Source of the DNA: Carcharhinus longimanus
Lineage: Eukaryota
Reading direction: 5' to 3'
Assembly: GCA_030264375.1 (NCBI GenBank)
Contig: JASCQW010000122.1
Location: 22,960,517-23,024,516, forward strand
Length of the DNA: 64,000 nucleotides
Below are positions 2,611-27,200 of the stretch, in pieces. The notes beneath the pieces were generated by a model. The model saw only the letters and a list, made by a program, of their open reading frames with translations. It was not told the origin of the DNA and made no database searches. Numbering within the stretch: position 1 is the stretch's first letter; each line of letters begins with the position of its first letter. Made by a program: the position numbers and the translations under genes.

Positions 2611-2686
2611 GAGAGTGAGACAGAGAGTGAGACAGAGAGTGAGACAGAGAGTGAGACAGAGAGTGAGACAGAGAGTGAGACAGAGA
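2611..2686 (+). repeat. (GAGAGTGAGACA)n 12-mer tandem repeat running into a gap
   Basis: About six perfect units directly after the 1856-2610 N-run. Confidence 0.95.
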
Positions 2687-2689
2687 GCA

Positions 2690-4730
2690 GCCATTGTTGC
2701 ATGCGCAATCCAAACAGCAGGCATGTGCACATGCTGAGTACATGGTGCCAGACTGCAGGCACGCATGAGGGTGCCACAGACAAAAGCACACATGCGAGGC
2801 ATCAGACAAGCATGCCCACGAGGCGTCACAGACGAGAGCGAAACAGCGTGCACGAGAGTGCCACAGAGCGAGAGAGCGTGCACGAGGATGCCAAAAAGCA
2901 GGACGGTGTCCGAGCATGAGAGCACGCACAAGGGTGCCAGAGAGCGCGAGCGTGCCAAGGAGCAGGAGCATATGGGAGAGTGAGCGAGAACACAAGCGTC
3001 AGGGAGTGAGAGGGAGTGAGCGAGTATGCCCAAGAGCAGGCACGTGCGCGAGTCAGAAAGCAGGCGTCACTGCGCGGGTGAGCCAGAGAGCAGGCGCTCA
3101 CACACTGAGGGTGCAACAGATAAGAGTAAGTCTGCACGAGGTGATACAGATGAGTGTGCATGCCTGCAGGGTGCCACAGGCGAGAGCATGCGTGCACGCA
3201 TAGCCACAGATGAGAACGTGTGCAAACTGCCACAGACAACAGCATGCACACACGTGCGAGGTACCACAGACAAGGGTGTGTGCGTGAGCTGCCACATATG
3301 AGTGCGCACGCCTGCAGTGCCAGAGATCACAGCACGCGTGCGAGTTGCTGGAGACGAGAGCGTGTGCGCAAGGGTGCCACAGAACGAGGTAGAGCGTGTG
3401 CGAGGGTGCCACTAAGCAAAGGAGCACCAAGGGTACCACGGAGCGCGCAAGTGAGCGTGCTCTCGCACACAAGGGTGCCACAGAATGAGCGAGAGAGAGA
3501 GGGAGAGAGAGAGAGAGAGAGAATGCTCACGTGCGAGGGTGCCACAGATCAAGAGAGAGAGAACGTGCAAAGGTACCAGGGAGAGAGCGAGGGTACAACA
3601 GAGTACGAGAGGGTGCCACGGAGTGACAGTAAGACAGCACCATCGTGCATGAGGATGCTACAGAGCGAGCAAGAGAGGGAGCGAGAGAAAATGCACACCA
3701 GGCCACAGAACGAGCAGGAGGGCGCGTGAGGGTGCCACAGAATGAGCGAGACACAAAATGCGCACTCACGCACGAGGGTGCCACAGAACGAGTGAGAGAG
3801 CGCGCTCACGCACGAGGGTACCACAGAACGAAAGAGAGAGAGCGCACTCGCGTACAACAGTGCCACAGAACGAGCGAGAGAGAGCGTGCACTCCTGCGCG
3901 AGGGTGCCACAGAACAAGTGAGAGAGCGCGAGCATTCACGGACAAGGGTGCAGAGACACAGAGGGCGCAAGCGAGCGCTCACATGCGAGGGTGCCACAGA
4001 ACAAGCGAGAGAGCGCGCTCGCACGCAAGGATGTCACAGAACGAGTGCGTGCACAAGGGTGCCCCAGAACGAGCAAGAGACCACGCGAGGGTACCACAGA
4101 ACGAGAGCGCGCTCACGCGTGAGGGTGCCACAGAACAAGCCAAGAGAGAGGGTGCTTGCGCACAAGGGGTGCCACAGAACGAGCAAGAGAGAGAGACAGA
4201 GAGCACTCGCACGCGAGGGTGCCACAGAACGGGCAAGAGAGAGCATGCTCACACGCAAGTGTGCCACAGAACGAGAGAGTGCGCTCATGTGCGAGGGTGC
4301 CATAGAATGACCAAGACCACGTGAGGGTGCCACAAAATGAGCAAGAGATTGCAGGAACGAGCGAGAGACCGCACGAGAAAGAGCAGGTGAAGGTGCCACA
4401 GAATGACAGATCGTGCGCTCGTGCATGAGGGTACCAGAAAAAGAAAACGCGCACGCTCGGGTGCCACAGAACAAGCAAGAGCCCACGTGAGGATGCCACA
4501 GAACGAACAAGAGCGTGCTCACATGCCAGGGTGCCACAGGACGAGCAAGAGAGCGCACTCACACGCGAGGGGGCCATAGAACGAGGATTCGCGCGCGAAG
4601 GTGCTACAGAACAAGCTTGAGTGCGCGCGAGGGTGCCACAGAACGAGCGGGTGAGTGCACTCATGCGTGAGGGTGCCACAGAACAAACGAGTGTACTGGC
4701 ACACGAGGGTGCCACAAAATGAGACAAAGC
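2690..4730 (+). repeat. Diverged CpG-rich minisatellite, ~40-bp unit, roughly 50 copies, core GAGGGTGCCACAGAACGAG
   Basis: Core recurs about every 35-45 bp (e.g. ~3774, 3814, 3900, 3988, 4122, 4215), linked by GA/GC/CA dinucleotide-rich variable segments. Source of the many overlapping spurious ORFs. Confidence 0.93.
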
Positions 4731-5310
4731 ACCCGAGCCAGCAGAGTGAGGCGCACACGGGTGCCACTGACCCAGCCGCTGCAGGCACAAGCGTGCACAC
4801 CAGGGCACCAGCGGAAGTGGGGAGCGATCACACACGCCAGGGGGAGCGGGGTGGGAGCGCACACAATAGAGTACCAGTGGGGAGCGGGGCGCAGGGCGCG
4901 CATGCACCAGGGGGAGAGAGGCACGACACCAGGGTGGGGAGTGCACACGCCAGAGCGCCACTGAGCCAGGGGGAGTGGGGAGTGGGGCGTGACACCGGGG
5001 AAGCGGGAAGCGGACACGCCAGGCGCCACTGAGCCAACAGGAGCAGGGTGCGGGGCGGGTGTGCCAGGACACCGAGCAAGCACGTGCATGCAAGCCAGAG
5101 GGAGAATGTACATACGAACCAGAGCAAAAGCACACACCAGAGAGAATGCTCGTGCGAGAATGTGTGCACGTGCGAGAGTGAGAGAGACAGACAGCATGTG
5201 TGTGAACGTATGTAAGCAGTGTGAGAGGGAGTGTGAGAGACTAAGAGTGTGCGAGTGAGATTGTGCAAGCGCATATGAGAGGGAGAGGGAGAGGGAGTGA
5301 GAAAGAGTAA
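4731..5310 (+). repeat. G-rich degenerate repeat (cacacgccagggggag...gggg) grading into a decayed GA/GT microsatellite
   Basis: Repeated cacac(g)ccaggg / gtggggag motifs at 4790-5070, and GA/GT-rich tract at ~5130-5310. Confidence 0.75.
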
Positions 5311-16300: not shown

Positions 16301-17631
16301 TAATAAAATATCAGCTTTAAAATGTTCGTTTTATTTGTTCTGGTGGTATGTTCAGAACATCTGGCACTAATTTTGTTCATAGCAGGGAAAAGACAGCCCC
16401 ACAGCAGTGGAATACATATACAAATGAAAACCTCAACCTATATACATATTTAAGAAAAACATCAGGATTTGTTTTTAAATCCAATCAGAACGCATAATAT
16501 TAGACCAAATCGTCATTTGGGTACATTCTAAAATATCATTGAATGGAAGGCTTTTGTTACACCACCCCACAGTGTACAAAAACATGCCAAAACCTCAAAA
16601 GTGAGGTTTTCCTGCAAACTCAAAAAGACTGTTCAGAAATGCTCCACATTTTCCTTTATAAGCATTTAAGAAAATCTTTCGCTCCCTCGCAAAAACCTAA
16701 ATGAAAATGAGCACATTCGAGAACACCAACTTGCTGTCTACAAGATTCTACAATTACCTGTTATATCTGAAGTGTGCCACGCTTCTAATAATTTATTTAA
16801 GCCTTTTTTTTTAAAACATACACTTCAAATAAGTTAACCTTCAATATAGCAAATCATTGCGTGCAATCTGGTCAGCAATAACGGATAATGTATTTAAGGT
16901 TTTAAAGAGAAAGAATATAGGGCAGGGAGTAAATTATTCTATAGTGTTAGCAATACTTCTTTTGAATACGTAAAGCATTTTTGTTGAAAATGATAAATTA
17001 AAACACTGTGCTTTTTAGGATTCAACGGAAGATAATGTAACAGTTAATTAAGAAAAAATACAACCTTTTCTCTACCTACATCCTTCAAAATGACATACAT
17101 TAATTTTTATTTAAAAAGTCTCTGTTATATATTTGGTTTTGTACATCACTTGCACACTGTTGCTTTCAAAATAGCTTCGACAATTGAGCCACGGAAGCAA
17201 CTCTACCTCCAGACATTTGAGTATATTTCACTTAAATTTTGGAAGTTAAATTTAACTAAATGAAAGCATGACAGTGGAATGTCGGAATTAATCAGGTACA
17301 GTGCTAAAATGTAAATTCTGCACTGAAATCTGAGTGCAGAATATCCAATAGTAAGCAGCTATCGAGAAAAATAAATCAGTATTGAGCTGGTTAAATCAAC
17401 TTTTTTGAAGAAATCCCAATGTCATGCTGCCTGCAATTGGATTTTCCTTTTTTGTTTCTTCTTCACAGACAGATTCTTCTGAAAGCGGCAACACAAAGGT
17501 CACAGTTTCAAGTATTGGATAGAAGGTCGCTTGCCTTAACTGACCACCTCTTAACCACAGTAACTGGCCTTATCTGAAGCCCATCGAGTGAAATAAAACA
17601 CAAACGTGCACTGTAGCATATGGTAACTTAC

Positions 17632-17754
17632 CCAGCTGTTTAGATTGAGATGCCAGCAACCAAACTGATGGAGAAAGGAGAACCCAGAGGCTAGCGTTCC
17701 TCCTTTATTGTTCCCTTCTTCCATTCCCAGCAAAATCGCATCCCTCGGGTACAT
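17632..17754 (-). CDS. TCF7L2: Candidate alternative first coding exon D of TCF7L2 (41 aa: MYPRDAILLGMEEGNNKGGTLASGFSFLHQFGCWHLNLNSW)
   Basis: agcagc-ATG (A at -3) at 17754, 123 bp = 41 codons, ending TGG|GTAAGT (plus acttac 17626-17631). Perfect donor in phase 0, in frame with the 7359 acceptor, with a purine-rich UTR-like leader upstream. Confidence 0.65.
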
Positions 17755-19684
17755 GCTGCTTTATCTTCTGTTGTCTCTTAACCTCTACAACTTTTCCCCC
17801 CTTTCTTTCTTGCCTTGGTGCCGACTGCGCTTTGTGTCTTCGTGGTTTTCCTAGCGTCTTTTTTTCTCTTAAAAAAGTACTAAAAAAAATGTCTCAAAAG
17901 ATCAAAAGCTTTCCATTTCTGTGGCCTGGTGTTTTTAGAACCAACATTCTCATTCAAGTTTGCCGTTAGTAACATCTTAGTCCTGGTGTAGTCCTCTGTC
18001 TGCCGTGTAGCAGGTACCAAAATTTAGGACACACTCAAATGATAACATAGATCACTGCACCAAAACGCTCACTTAGAAATGAGTAAGCCCGCACACAGGG
18101 GTATAACCCCATGCGTACTATTTATTTTCTTTTCAAAGCCTACAACTCTCCTAGGATTACCAAAATGACAATGCTGCAACTCTATATGGAAAGGTATCAA
18201 TAAGTGCAGCAGCAAGGAGACAAGCATTGGTTAAGGGAGCATGATCAACAAACTGTAGCATGCAGTCACATCTGTGGGAATGTCAAACCCCTCACGCTGA
18301 ACTTCTGGGGGTAGAGTTGCAAGAATGCTCTATTTTCTTTGACACGGTGACACTATAATATATCTCACGCACACAGACTCATATACATACAAATATATAA
18401 AAATATATGTTTAAAAAAAAGACACCTGTGAGGTCTTGCCATCAGTCCCAGCAGGTTTTTTTTAATTACAACAGTAAACAGGGTGGAGAAAAGGCAAAGC
18501 ACTAGACCTCACTGCAGCTTCTACTGGCTGACCTCAGCTACACACAATATACAAGAGCAGCTTTTGTATTACAAGGATTCTCTTTCCGAGTTGCTCTTTG
18601 CATACTGCTTCCCGTCGCTAATTGCATCCCCAAACAAAACCCTCTCCATCTCCAAATTGGGGGCAGCTCATATGTTCCAGAAAATGCTTTTCACAATGGA
18701 AGCAAAAAGTAATGAAATGTTCCCATTAACCACGCTCACCCCCCCCCCAACACCCCCTCCCACCCCTCCACCATGAATATAGGTGGCATAAAGCCCACGA
18801 TACCCTCCCACCAACCAAAAAAAACTCAACTTTTTAAAAACAAACTTTACAGGCATTCAGTTTTCTTAAAAATATAAAGTCGTTCAGTAGGCTCTGCAGA
18901 AGATGCCACATACTTTTCCTTCCCGTCTATCTGCCTGATCAGAAAAGTGACAAGACACGAGAACAGGGGAAACAAAACACTGTGCGGTTTTTTCCCTCTT
19001 TATTTCGTGCTCTGCACTAATCTGGCCTTCGCGTGCAAAGTGTCGGCCAGAAATCTTTAAGGCCTTAATACCAAAACAAAACCTTTGAATTCCCTTTATA
19101 TGGTGCAATACAGGCGCTAACAAAGGCAATGAGGCTACAGTTTGACATATAAAAAGCCCAACAACGAGGCAGCTAATTACATTCCCTCCCTCTATTCATG
19201 GTGGCCACCACACTCCAGCAGCTTCTTTTGTCACACGTGCAATTTCTTAAGTAAACTGGGAGTTTGGTTGCTGATGATGGACAGTTACTAATCATTTAGC
19301 ACAATGAACGCTAAGTGCGACAGAAAGGATGGGCAACTTCAACACAGATTTCTTTGGGATTGGAGGATGTGAGAAGAAAAAAAAAGGAGCGGGGTGGGGG
19401 CGGTGGAAGCTCGCCACACAGACGACGAAAGGTGAACACTTAAAATGCCAGATCCTTTCAGTTCACATATTTACCTTGCATCTACTGGGGGAGGGGAATC
19501 AAGCCCAAGACAGGAAGGGGTGACAAGCTGTCTTGTCAGCTTGGATCGGGAATGTCTCACTCGTTGAGACTTTGNNNNNNNNNNNNNNNNNNNNNNNNNN
19601 NNNNNNNNNNNNNNNNNNNNNNNNNNNNNNNNNNNNNNNNNNNNNNNNNNNNNNNNNNNNNNNNNNNNNNNNNNACATATTTAC

Positions 19685-19747
19685 CTTGCATCTACTGGGG
19701 GAGGGGGGAGGCCGGGGGGGAGTTGGTGGAGGGAAAGGCAAAAACAT
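19685..19747 (-). CDS. Weak candidate alternative first coding exon C (MFLPFPPPTPPRPPPSPSRCK)
   Basis: ATG at 19747-19745, 21 open codons, then AAG|GTAAAT donor in phase 0. Low-complexity, next to a gap, and the donor region is duplicated at 19465-19496. Confidence 0.3.
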
Positions 19748-20016
19748 GCTGTGGGAAAGAGAGACTGCAAATCAAACTTGCCAACTCCGATTAACTTCAG
19801 ACATTACATCAGGAACAGAATTCTAAATACTTCCATTACCCAATAGTTTTTTCGTTTCACTCCCCCCCCCCCTCAAACCACCAGAAAAGTTTTCCATAAA
19901 ATCTCAATTTAAAACAAAACACACACCAAAGCACAATTAACCTAAATGTCATATTAGTCAATTGGAAAATAATGCTTTCGAGCATTCAGTCCTTCTTAAA
20001 AATTTTGCTAACTTAC

Positions 20017-20200
20017 CATTTACACCTGCTCAAATTACGATGCTTCACACTGCCTGAATTCAAACATGCTGCCGTTCCTGTGCTACAGCATAAAATCAGC
20101 CGGCTCTTTGCGATGTGGGCAGATCCACTGGGGGGCAGCACCCTACCTGAGCCACTTACAGCCGAGATGCTGCTGAGATAGGGACACGAAGCGATTACAT
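20017..20200 (-). other. TCF7L2: Candidate internal alternative first exon B of TCF7L2 (ends in ATG)
   Basis: Plus aacttac|catttacacc is minus GGTGTAA-ATG|GTAAGTT: second perfect ATG|GTAAGT (ATG 20019-20017), in-frame TAA immediately before it, phase 0. Kozak context weaker (T at -3). The 5' boundary is a guess. Confidence 0.55.
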
Positions 20201-20880
20201 CCAACTCCAGCTCTCCAGGAAAAGATGCTCAAGTTCAGGTCTATTCAGTGAATTACCTTGCTTCATGGGAAAGAGATAATGAGATGGCAGCACTCATTTG
20301 ATCAGAACCAGCCCCAAAAATCACACCAACAGTTTTCAGAGAGGAACAAAAGAACAACAGTTGCTTGCTTTCTTGGCGACATTAAAACCAGTTGCAGCCT
20401 CCCATAATGTTAAATTGGCTGGTATTTTTGAAGCCAGACCAGAGAGAGAGAGAGAGAGACATACAAAAAAAAGTAGTTCCTCCCCCCCACCACTCCCCCC
20501 GCCTCCCGCAAGGTACATAAAGGCTAAACCTACCGTTTATTTTGCCCACATAGCCAGCTCAGTTTAATCACGACCGCCGGGGAATGCTGAACTATGAAAT
20601 GATTTTGATACATCAATTCAAAGTTTCTTTTTTAAACAAAAAAAAGGCAACTTAGCAAGTTGTGTATCTGAGCTCTAATATTTGCCACAGCCAAATGTGG
20701 CAAGCGGTTCCATAAAGCTTCCCTGCCCACTTTTGAAGCCTGCGTTACTAACACACGCAGAATGACACCACTGAGCGCCTTTAAAGGATACTAGGGAAAA
20801 AAAATGACTATTGATCTTCAAATGGTGATAATTGAAAAGATCAAAAGATTAAACAAAATCAAAAAAATGCGCTGACTTAC

Positions 20881-21150
20881 CATGTTATGCTTTTTTTTGT
20901 TACAACTTGGTTGAAATTTCAGTCAAACAAGCTTCATCGGAGATGTCAAATTTTTGGCGGACTGTGATCGTATTACTTCCGCAGCCTTGCCTCACAATAC
21001 TTCAGAACTTTTTACCTAGCTTTGGTTTACTTTGAAAGCTGCAGCTCAGCAAACCAGCACAAATTATCTTGCCACCTTCTACAGCTCTGATGCTTTGGCC
21101 GCTAACTTTGGAAGGCCCTTTACTACTGCATCAAAATTAGCATTGTCAAA
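20881..21150 (-). other. TCF7L2: Candidate internal alternative first exon A of TCF7L2 (5' UTR plus start codon only; gives M-SNKVPVV...)
   Basis: Plus gacttac|catgttatgc is minus GCATAAC-ATG|GTAAGTC: perfect donor directly after an ATG (20883-20881), A at -3, phase 0 matching the 7359 acceptor. The 5' boundary is a guess. Confidence 0.7.
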
Positions 21151-21270
21151 GCGGTTAATGAATATTAATACTGTATTTGTCATTGGAGCTGGCCTGATGC
21201 TGAACTCCGAGCCATCCATCAGGGACAAGATTAAGAACACAATTATTTCTGACTGACAGGGTCCAAATCT
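21130..21270 (-). promoter_or_regulatory. Candidate internal promoter upstream of exon A
   Basis: Position immediately 5' of the first ATG|GTAAGT exon. Clustered homeodomain cores (aaattag, gttaatgaatattaata, gattaa, aattat) and TGTCA/TGACA (TALE-type) motifs. Motif-level evidence only. Confidence 0.4.
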
Positions 21271-24200: not shown

Positions 24201-27200
24201 CCATGATTTTATATTAAAACTGTGAAAAGGTTCATGCAAATTTGTTACAAAAAAGATTCTCTCATGTAGACAGTTCTCACCAAAACACTGTTCGCTAATG
24301 AAATCATCTACAATACAATTCAGGAACAAATTAAGTTTTTGTACTAGCTACTGGGGTCCCACTTACAATTCTAATGAAGTCAACACTCCAATAAGATGTG
24401 TTCAGAAAGTTTCCTGGGCCACCAGCACAGAGATCCTTTTCGCCAATTAGTGCAAAGAAAAAGAAGGGGAGAGAAAAAAAACCAGAGTGCCCGTACTCAA
24501 AGAGCTAGGCCTCACGGCAAATCTGTCATGTCGACTGAATTGATCAACGGGACTGGTATTTCTAATGGCATCTTGTCAGGAAAAGTCAGCCATAGGGAGC
24601 CACCTGTGTTACTCTTTGCAGACAGCTAAAGAGCTAGATACCGATCTCAGGCAGCATCTTTTACTAACAATTTGGGAGAGCAGTCTGATTTCCACTACCG
24701 TACAACTTGTCATTCTGCAATCATCAGAAATGGTTATATGCTGAACACAGCCATTCCATAGACAGCCAATTTACTAGAAACTCAACGCTACAAAACAATG
24801 AGAATGATCAATTTCCAATTTAAAAAAAACAATTAATTGTGCATATCATTATGCTCATGGATTCCATTCTCTAGTAACAAGCATGACCTAGACTTTGCAA
24901 TATAACAAGAGTGCAGATGACGTGGAGTCCTGTTTGGCCAAGGAACGCTTTTCCAGGTTCAACAATACAGCCTCCAAACTCTCAGAAACCAGTTCTTAAG
25001 ACAATAAGATGTGCATGAACCATTTTGAGTGCGCTGCCATAAACATTACAGAATACGGGCAGCCAGATCTACACCAAATACATTATTAAGTTCCACAAAA
25101 TGAATCACAAAAATGAGGAACTTGCATACAAACGTCAGAAGGCGCGCACAATTTTTTTGGGGTGCCTAGTTTGTCAAGCGAGCCAAAAGCACTTGGGTTG
25201 CAAATCACGTATCGCAATCTTTCTTGCTCTCATCAGTCAATGAAATTCTCAGGTTCTTTCTCTTTGCAGCCTGCGGCGGTGGCTTTGCCCAGGGACATAT
25301 ACCAATAGAAAAATTTTCATCGTGTTAGCATTTCAAATGGCAGAAAGTGAAAGGAAGCCCTAACTGATCATAGCCTGCGGAATTAATTGGCTATTCTCTG
25401 AATAATGTCGCTCACCGCATATCCTTGGGAGACCAGCACTAGCCGAGGCCACGTTTTTGTGCAACGGCTTCAAAAAAAAAAAGCGCTTAGGGGGTATTGG
25501 GGGGGGGGTCGGAAAGCTTTAGCGCATTTCCCCAAAGACCAAGCAAATAGAACCAGCGAGCCTTGCCCAACTAATCCATTTGGTAATTAAATGCACAATT
25601 CCATTAAACATTCTTCCATCATTTCAAAATTACATGAACAATAGATTCCGATTGCTCTGAATCTATATGCTGGATACGCGATATCAATGCAATGAACGCG
25701 GCTGGAAGACTTCTGTCTTAAGTGAGGAAAATTTAAAATATTCTCGGCTTTTTGCCAGTTTTAAAACAAAGAACTCAAGTAGACGCCATGTTGCTACTTG
25801 TTTCATTCTGTGGGATTAAAGTTTGGGCTTTTTTTTCACTCATCAAAGGATATGCAATGACCCTGCTTGATATGAGTATACCACTCTTTAAGACACATCT
25901 TAATCTAACCTTTTTAGGACTCTTGGCTTTCAAACTCAAAACAGCATTAAAAATAGGCATTGTTGGTCAGCCCTGGGAGACTGAGCTTCTGGCTTTCGCT
26001 GGCCAGGGCAGTAGCCCTCTGGATACACAGCTGCTTACGCGGCCAAGCAAGCTCTGCACAGCAAAAGGAAAGCAAAGGGGGAGAAAGTGAAAAGACGAGA
26101 TTAAAAAAAATCTTCGCAAATGTTCCATCTTTCGTTATCGACTGCAGCCTAGCGTGAGGTGCCAATTTTCAGCTCTAAAGAGAGGACACAAATTCGCAGC
26201 GGTCCCATTATGCGGTCTCTTCGCTCATTGTATATTCCGTCAACGAAGTCAATCTTATTAACTTCCGCTCTGGTTCACACATGACATTTTCTTCAATTTT
26301 CTTGCCAACATCAAAAACATCAATTAGCAGCTAGAAAATAGGAAGGAACAAATGACAGAGCCCGATAACGTCAACTATTTGAAACAGAGGGTAAATCTAT
26401 TCCGCAATACTGAATGCATTCATTACCAATTCATTTTCAAAGGAGGCTTCCAAATAGCAAGGAAAATTAAATTTATCATCTAGAAATGTCCAGAAATTGT
26501 TTGTTTCTTAATCCTATATCTACAGTGCCTCTTCCAAACGCAAGATGAAGAAATGTTATCTAGTTTTAGGTTTGTACAGTGCAACTTGGAGAGAAATCGA
26601 TGGGTTCAGCACCATACAGGATGCACTGAATCTCACGCAGAAACTTGAAATAGATGTAACCGTACTAACTTACTTCCGATATTTCTACATATTTCGCCCC
26701 TACTTTACTAAATTTAAATACAAGAAAGATTCCTTCGTCCATCAAAATGAGACACAATTTACCAAACTTATTTGCTTTTGCAGCTGACTCTGTTTCACTG
26801 GATAACTGACATGTAGCTTAAAGTGTATCGTGGCAAACACTGTTTTACAATACTTAAGTAAAAGCTATTTCTGCTGATGTGCCTGCTTTATGAGAAGGCT
26901 TTCATGCTTGTATTACATCTCCTAGGGAGTGAATAAAAGCAAATTTAGTGACTGCTGAAGACGACTGCTCGGAATTAATGTGAACAGAAAAGAGCAGCTA
27001 CACCAAATAAACAGATCACTTTCCTCTGACCATTGATTTCTTGATCTTTTGACATTATTTACGAGCTTCCTATTCTCTTTCCTGTCTTTTTTCCAATGTC
27101 ACAAAGGAAAAATGTCTAAACAGCTGATGGCAGGATTATCAATTAGCTGTCAAGATTCTGCTTTCCAGCACTGAACAATACCTGCCATAACACTGAAGAT

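Follow-up and report, generated by a model that had tools for sequence, protein, structure and literature searches.

The window analysed here, 64 000 nt of DNA from Carcharhinus longimanus (G000:C122:22960517-23024516, in a genome of 2.68 Gb), lies within the gene TCF7L2, and part of its minus strand very probably represents the shark orthologue of the TCF7L2 intron-5 module of alternative first exons, from which a short TCF7L2 without the beta-catenin-binding N-terminus would be made. We regard the module as real and orthologous, with two of its exons supported, one likely and one doubtful. The common acceptor exon is exon 6 (7359-7227, 133 bp, minus strand, as are all exons and candidate exons below), with the translation SNKVPVVQH...DPKT, which matches vertebrate TCF7L2 with 100 % identity over 44 aa. 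Exon 5 (YLQMKW...AHIV) ends in a donor at the window-equivalent position 74906, 67.5 kb upstream of exon 6 and past the end of the window, and exon 1 is located about 139 kb upstream; exons 1-3 and 5 are all upstream of the donors described below, and the HMG-box exons are downstream and intact, with open reading frames. When compared with a shark RefSeq TCF7L2 (P0121) the gene is 97 % identical in exon 1 and 100 % identical in exons 5 and 6, and it agrees with this protein at positions where skate departs. The other three TCF/LEF loci are elsewhere in the genome, on contigs C109 (TCF7), C1 (LEF1) and C166 (TCF7L1, assigned by exon IV and by elimination). The exon matches and the separate location of the three paralogues therefore identify the host as shark TCF7L2 and place the donor cluster in intron 5, 10.3-13.5 kb upstream of exon 6, and the labels 'shark' and 'TCF7L2' given to this DNA in a preliminary description were correct.

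Donor motifs in intron 5

The preliminary description, made from the sequence alone, had drawn attention to four minus-strand donors, at 20881 (ATG/GTAAGT), 20017 (ATG/GTAAGT), 19685 (AAG/GTAAAT) and 17632 (TGG/GTAAGT), and had taken them to be a cluster of alternative first exons. All four are present at these positions, each follows an in-frame ATG (at 20883, 20019, 19747 and 17754 or 17724, respectively), and all are in phase 0 relative to the 7359 acceptor of the 133 bp exon. The motif G/GTAAGT occurs three times in the 67.5 kb intron, each time within the same 3.25 kb (P = 0.007 with uniform placement and a motif picked post hoc); the total of three is at chance level, 2.8-3.8 being expected. 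The presence of two ATG/GTAAGT sites is a better hint than this clustering, as ATGGTAAGT is found twice compared with 0.28-0.39 expected across the whole intron. In a rough donor matrix based on approximate frequencies, nine sites in the intron outscore 20881 and 20017, and 19685 is outside the top 30. Given the chance-level counts and the higher-scoring sites, the motifs by themselves are suggestive and go no further. The CpG ratio of the region is slightly raised (0.37-0.57 per kb, compared with 0.36 for the window) and there is no CpG island; the ratio is raised as well at 25001-27000. A second group of strong donors on the same strand (32929, 32411 and 32180, within 750 bases) was dropped, since 32411 is in an interspersed repeat and the others are unsupported.

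Candidate first exons

The exon that ends at 20017 (20431-20017, at least 415 nt, ATG/GTAAGT) is spliced to exon 6 in a contig from a related species, and would encode a protein that begins M-SNKVP. Four of nine sequencing runs that are probably RNA (a guessed status; 6-15 % of words) were aligned, to positions 19676-21000 only. In one of these, run X2 from a relative with about 94 % identity, a contig with a depth of 39 spans 20431-20017 with 21 mismatches and six gap letters over 415 positions, and is unspliced through two donor-like sites (20257 and 20147) and one acceptor-like site (20172). It departs from the genome exactly at the 20017 donor, and its next 27 letters correspond to 7359-7333 of the window at 27 of 27 positions, with exact GT/AG boundaries, so that an intron of 12 657 bases is bridged. 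The junction from 20017 to 7359 is the one forecast in the preliminary description, and it is present in this relative (probable RNA, one study).

Several observations weigh against a simple reading of this exon. The junction derives from a single contig and a single study of a related species with guessed RNA status, and the 27 letters on its exon 6 side are fewer than the 31 used as a bridging standard. At the upstream end of the contig 55 letters are repeat and are unplaced, and contigs cannot reveal where transcription starts. A low-depth contig in run X1 crosses 20017 unspliced, with no difference listed at ATG/GTAAGT. The start codon at 20019 is in a weak context and is preceded by eight upstream ATGs (20490-20020), the frames of which all close before it. 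These upstream ATGs suggest translational control of the 20017 isoform, and together with the weak context they imply that its output of protein may be small or subject to regulation.

For the exon that ends at 17632 the evidence comes from protein records. Its coding part (17754-17632) consists of 41 codons (MYPR...LNSW) followed by the phase-0 donor TGG/GTAAGT; it is present as a single copy in the genome, and the DNA upstream of the ATG at 17754 is purine-rich and has no acceptor. When proteins were searched with exon 6 and the N-termini of the best 120 of 3823 matches were sorted, 13 mapped onto 17754-17632, the closest among the matches listed being that of little skate RefSeq isoform X18 (P0100, XP_055502842.1), with 37 of 41 residues (90 %) identical. 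Among 299 proteins compared, which comprise the exon 6 matches, cluster members and alignment-search matches, a 41-residue peptide of the form M[YD][PL]R...W is joined straight to SNKVP in 34, and its length is constant. The carriers are skate, sturgeon, zebrafish and other otophysans (suckers, loach), chicken, quail and other birds, lizards, python, platypus, rodents, a mustelid and chimpanzee, although the 34 records are not independent observations, because many are automatic models with several per species. In none of the 299 does the peptide follow exon 5, as an insert of the type exon 5 to ...W-SNKVP.

The shark peptide is 46-71 % identical to those of bony vertebrates in protein records, and in eight sequences 12 of its 41 columns are invariant (M1, P3, R4, G10, K17, G24, S26, W34, L36, L38, N39 and W41). 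Unspliced genomic open reading frames of other vertebrates read on as W-V-S, as does the shark TGG GTA AGT, which is consistent with conservation of the donor at the same place. Splicing of 17632 to exon 6 can thus be described as database-supported. Set against this, the MYPR exon is found in only one, and an M-SNKVP start in none, of the 45 cartilaginous-fish proteins listed in three clusters with 106 members. Residues 1-41 of P0100, used as a query, matched nothing but themselves (six candidates scored; uninformative), and an alignment search with 42 matches returned none named as chimaera, lamprey or hagfish, although only 7995 candidates were scored, many matches are unnamed and absence is not implied. 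We note that a good acceptor-like site lies inside the exon at 17664 and would define an in-frame cassette of 33 nt (17664-17632) that encodes the most conserved end of the peptide; this cassette is in none of the 299 protein records.

The 41-residue N-terminus could be a functional module in its own right, the locus then giving two kinds of short TCF7L2, one with this N-terminus and one that begins with the bare M-SNKVP, but we consider this rather unlikely. No discussion of such a conserved alternative N-terminus was found in the parts consulted of the TCF7L2 literature on these isoforms.

The site at 20881 is a likely alternative first-exon end (20883-20881, ATG/GTAAGT), and is kept as such on account of its complete donor, the A at position -3 of its ATG and the conserved element just upstream. 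Isoforms starting M-SNKVP make up ten of the 299 proteins (in mouse, degu, spiny mouse, marmot, chicken, quail, sparrow and zebrafish, with no cartilaginous fish), and the records do not reveal which exon gives the ATG. Weighing against 20881 are the lack of a junction to exon 6 in the four probable-RNA runs over 19676-21000, where 20887-21000 is uncovered and so gives no evidence, and a contig in run X6 (depth 5) that spans 20886-20638 unspliced over the donor.

The conserved element (21219-21082) is upstream of the cluster and contains four TAAT/ATTA homeodomain cores. Its translation is 89 % identical to the ab initio N-termini of three bird predictions (P0049, P0072 and P0080), but the shark frame meets a TAG just ahead of the splice point of the bird models; the element is therefore taken to be non-coding, probably promoter or enhancer DNA, and the bird first-exon call to be mistaken. 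The alternative first exons in intron 5 of the mouse gene were reportedly described by Vacik, Stubbs and Lemke in 2011, along with a headless phenotype in Xenopus. Judged by its position and by that work, 21219-21082 probably corresponds to the promoter region that Vax activates, and its homeodomain cores are only a hint of Vax control.

The fourth candidate (19747-19685), with 21 low-complexity codons and the weak donor AAG/GTAAAT, is doubtful as a first exon. An acceptor-like site at 19748 directly precedes it, and no N-terminus resembling its peptide is present among those compared. No junction was seen for 19685 in the four runs either, although the site is uncovered and this is no evidence. 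A gap of 100 N at 19575-19674, overlooked in the preliminary description, is only 10 bases from the donor, and the 32-base context of 19685 recurs beyond it (19706-19675 equals 19496-19465), so that the donor appears a second time at 19475. The gap and this second copy are separated by 77 bases (19574-19498) that match a repeat copy at G000:C112:74680295-74680371 with 100 % identity. The repeated context and the repeat-derived segment lead us to read 19685 and 19475 as probably one donor, duplicated by a misjoin in the assembly (19465-19706).

Relationship to the mammalian module

The case for orthology rests on the junction at 20017 in the relative, on the conserved and annotated 17632 exon, and on an intron position that is the same as that of the Ex1b-e start site of mouse and human. 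In reviews, the start site for Ex1b-e is placed upstream of exon 6, and the mammalian exons, also called exon 5' and giving dnTcf7l2 or S-TCF7L2 (PMC3468386, PMC3825142, PMC10208975), are in the same intron of the same gene. In both systems there are several first exons (candidate ones in the shark) within a few kb upstream of exon 6 that are spliced, or predicted to be spliced, to exon 6, and the mouse products and those predicted for the shark are alike, beginning M-SNKVP or MYPR...W-SNKVP and lacking the beta-catenin-binding domain. Mouse has at least ten exon 5' donors, of which 2-9 are within about 6 kb, whereas the shark has two that are supported, one likely and one doubtful. A point that tells against a closer equation is that the likeness to Ex1b-e is drawn through position and protein records, at the level of the module and not exon by exon. 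Promoter activity, Vax control, neural expression and a repressor role, the last of these disputed, have been described for the mouse module and would be predictions for that of the shark.

Isoforms whose N-terminus is the 41-residue peptide of 17754-17632 are modelled for little skate (X18, XP_055502842.1), zebrafish (X19 and X41) and sterlet (X41); all are automatic models, and there is no shark record among the cluster members listed. The module is thus largely a known vertebrate feature: the skate isoform is in RefSeq as an NCBI model, and the short isoforms were assigned to jawed-vertebrate TCF7L2 by Torres-Aguila et al. 2022 (PMC9303524) in a chordate study that includes four cartilaginous fishes. 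These authors describe at least two TCF7L2 delta-N isoforms from novel exons between their exons IV and V, and delta-N exons gained in gnathostome TCF7L2 after the two rounds of genome duplication (2R), with none in TCF7L1. Their model is a composite one. The strings MYPR, WHLNLN and MSNKVP do not occur in the supplements of PMC9303524 consulted, which list full-length proteins and give no exon evidence specific to a shark, nor are exon 5' sequences or primers present in supplements 1 or 3 of PMC10208975 as consulted. Literature searches, which covered papers outside subscription, found none that names these exons in a cartilaginous fish.

No comparable module was found in the paralogues, either in TCF7 (C109, 40 kb before the exon), in LEF1 (C1, 20 kb before the exon) or in TCF7L1 (C166, 34 kb), stretches that contain 5109, 5010 and 2812 N, respectively. 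The matching intron of TCF7L1 is only about 3 kb, and a profile match on C166 (E = 0.044) was discarded as a 21-codon fragment in another intron. LEF1 and TCF7 likewise use an internal promoter to yield a TCF without the beta-catenin-binding domain, but their delta-N forms start in exon III (PMC9303524) and not through new first exons before exon 6, and the paralogous shark introns have no sequence likeness to the TCF7L2 module. This agrees with PMC9303524, and is sequence-level evidence that the module belongs to TCF7L2 alone of the four paralogues in the shark.

The earlier claims stand in part. The proposal that the region is orthologous to the mammalian module agrees with one junction, one exon annotated across jawed vertebrates and the matching intron position. 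Of the proposed cluster of four first-exon donors, 20017 is spliced in the relative and 17632 is supported by orthologue records, while 19685 is unsupported and 20881 is without a junction in the runs. A comparable division applies to the reads suggested as a check, which gave the 20017-7359 junction in X2 and none for 20881 or 19685, and to conservation in other vertebrates, which protein records reveal for 17754-17632 and 21219-21082 and which is lacking for 19747-19685. The dating to the jawed-vertebrate ancestor fits an exon present from skate to chimpanzee but is not new (XP_055502842.1; PMC9303524). The label 'dominant-negative switch' goes too far for the shark, for which it would be a prediction, and is disputed in mouse thalamus. 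What the present analysis contributes is sequence-level evidence that the ancestor shared by sharks and bony vertebrates already had a short-TCF7L2 module, which makes firmer a date previously proposed in print, and a set of coordinates usable for isoform-specific probes in shark embryos. TCF7L2 has links with the development of the thalamus, with a neurodevelopmental disorder and with type 2 diabetes.

Predicted products and rival explanations

Transcription would start within intron 5, near 21219-21082 and further downstream, probably with expression in the diencephalon and midbrain as in mouse. The first exons would join exon 6 in phase 0 and skip exons 1-5 (residues 1-162), a step that is seen directly for 20017, has database support for 17632 and is predicted for 20881. 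The expected products start M-SNKVP (20881 and 20017) or MYPR...W-SNKVP (17632) and would retain the HMG box, the nuclear localization signal and the C-terminal variants, each of which is found downstream. By analogy with mouse, such a protein would occupy TCF sites, be unable to recruit beta-catenin and so repress Wnt reporters; that it cannot bind beta-catenin is put forward because of its anatomy, the binding N-terminus being left out of the short form. Again by analogy, in nuclei that contain beta-catenin the short form may compete with the long one, and in those that do not the two may overlap in function, and the term 'Wnt-repressor switch' would then depend on context. In mouse, exon 5' transcripts make up about 50 % of the Tcf7l2 detected in brain with nanopore sequencing, are neural-specific and are required for the short protein, and deletion of about 6 kb containing exons 5'-2 to -9 leads to loss of the short protein and impaired pup vocalization (PMC10208975).

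A rival view accepts the same exons and short proteins, and replaces only the last step of this scheme; here the short form acts as a beta-catenin-independent regulator in thalamus and midbrain alongside the long form, and not as a dominant-negative Wnt switch. It is compatible with the anatomy of the module, and we rate its chances at only slightly below even. In its favour, both isoforms are required for mouse vocalization, and in the embryonic thalamus, where beta-catenin is not nuclear, a 2025 mouse knockout preprint reports that the two forms are for the most part redundant and not opposed (bioRxiv 10.64898/2025.12.27.696670). Against it, mouse short TCF7L2 represses TOPFlash in a manner that requires DNA binding, and a review has Vax proteins activating the dominant-negative isoform in the forebrain.

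The other two alternatives concern the exons themselves, and we consider both improbable, the second more so than the first. The region could be mainly a conserved intronic enhancer, with donors that are weakly used or RNA that is non-productive, and hence little short protein. The low-depth unspliced contigs of runs X1, X6 and X8, the eight upstream ATGs with the weak start at 20019, and the constraint at the DNA level in 21219-21082, which is able to mimic protein conservation, are all in keeping with this, but the X2 contig is spliced at a depth of 39, and the 34 records, which range from skate to chimpanzee, all have the 41-codon frame uninterrupted, unchanged in length and in phase. That the segments are internal cassette exons of a full-length transcript, or chance donor motifs, is very improbable, even though the acceptor-like sites at 17664 and 19748 would give cassettes of 33 nt (in frame) and 64 nt (19748-19685), the intron has stronger donor-like sites at other places (one of them within a repeat), and an 'exon 5b', located between exons 5 and 6, was once considered in mouse. 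Reverse transcription PCR in mouse gave no support for inclusion of exon 5b, and the 17632 exon is internal in none of the 299 proteins. The 20017 exon runs unspliced for at least 415 nt, beyond the sole acceptor-like site (20172), the use of which would include a stop. For 19685 alone a cassette is plausible; for the module as a whole we prefer alternative first exons.

A few other features of the gene may be mentioned. The intron after exon 6 contains a degenerate tandem array (2611-4953) with units of 32-44 bases that is purine-rich on the plus strand. Two ray RefSeq isoforms (P0148 and P0157) are without exon 5, exon 3 being spliced to exon 6, and an exon 5-skipping splice form has been reported in zebrafish (PMC3825142). 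Finally, a small C-terminal exon (SNWASYQLQARSEETFIFRR) follows the two C-clamp exons at about G000:C122:22932900-22933010 and is common to shark and skate isoforms.

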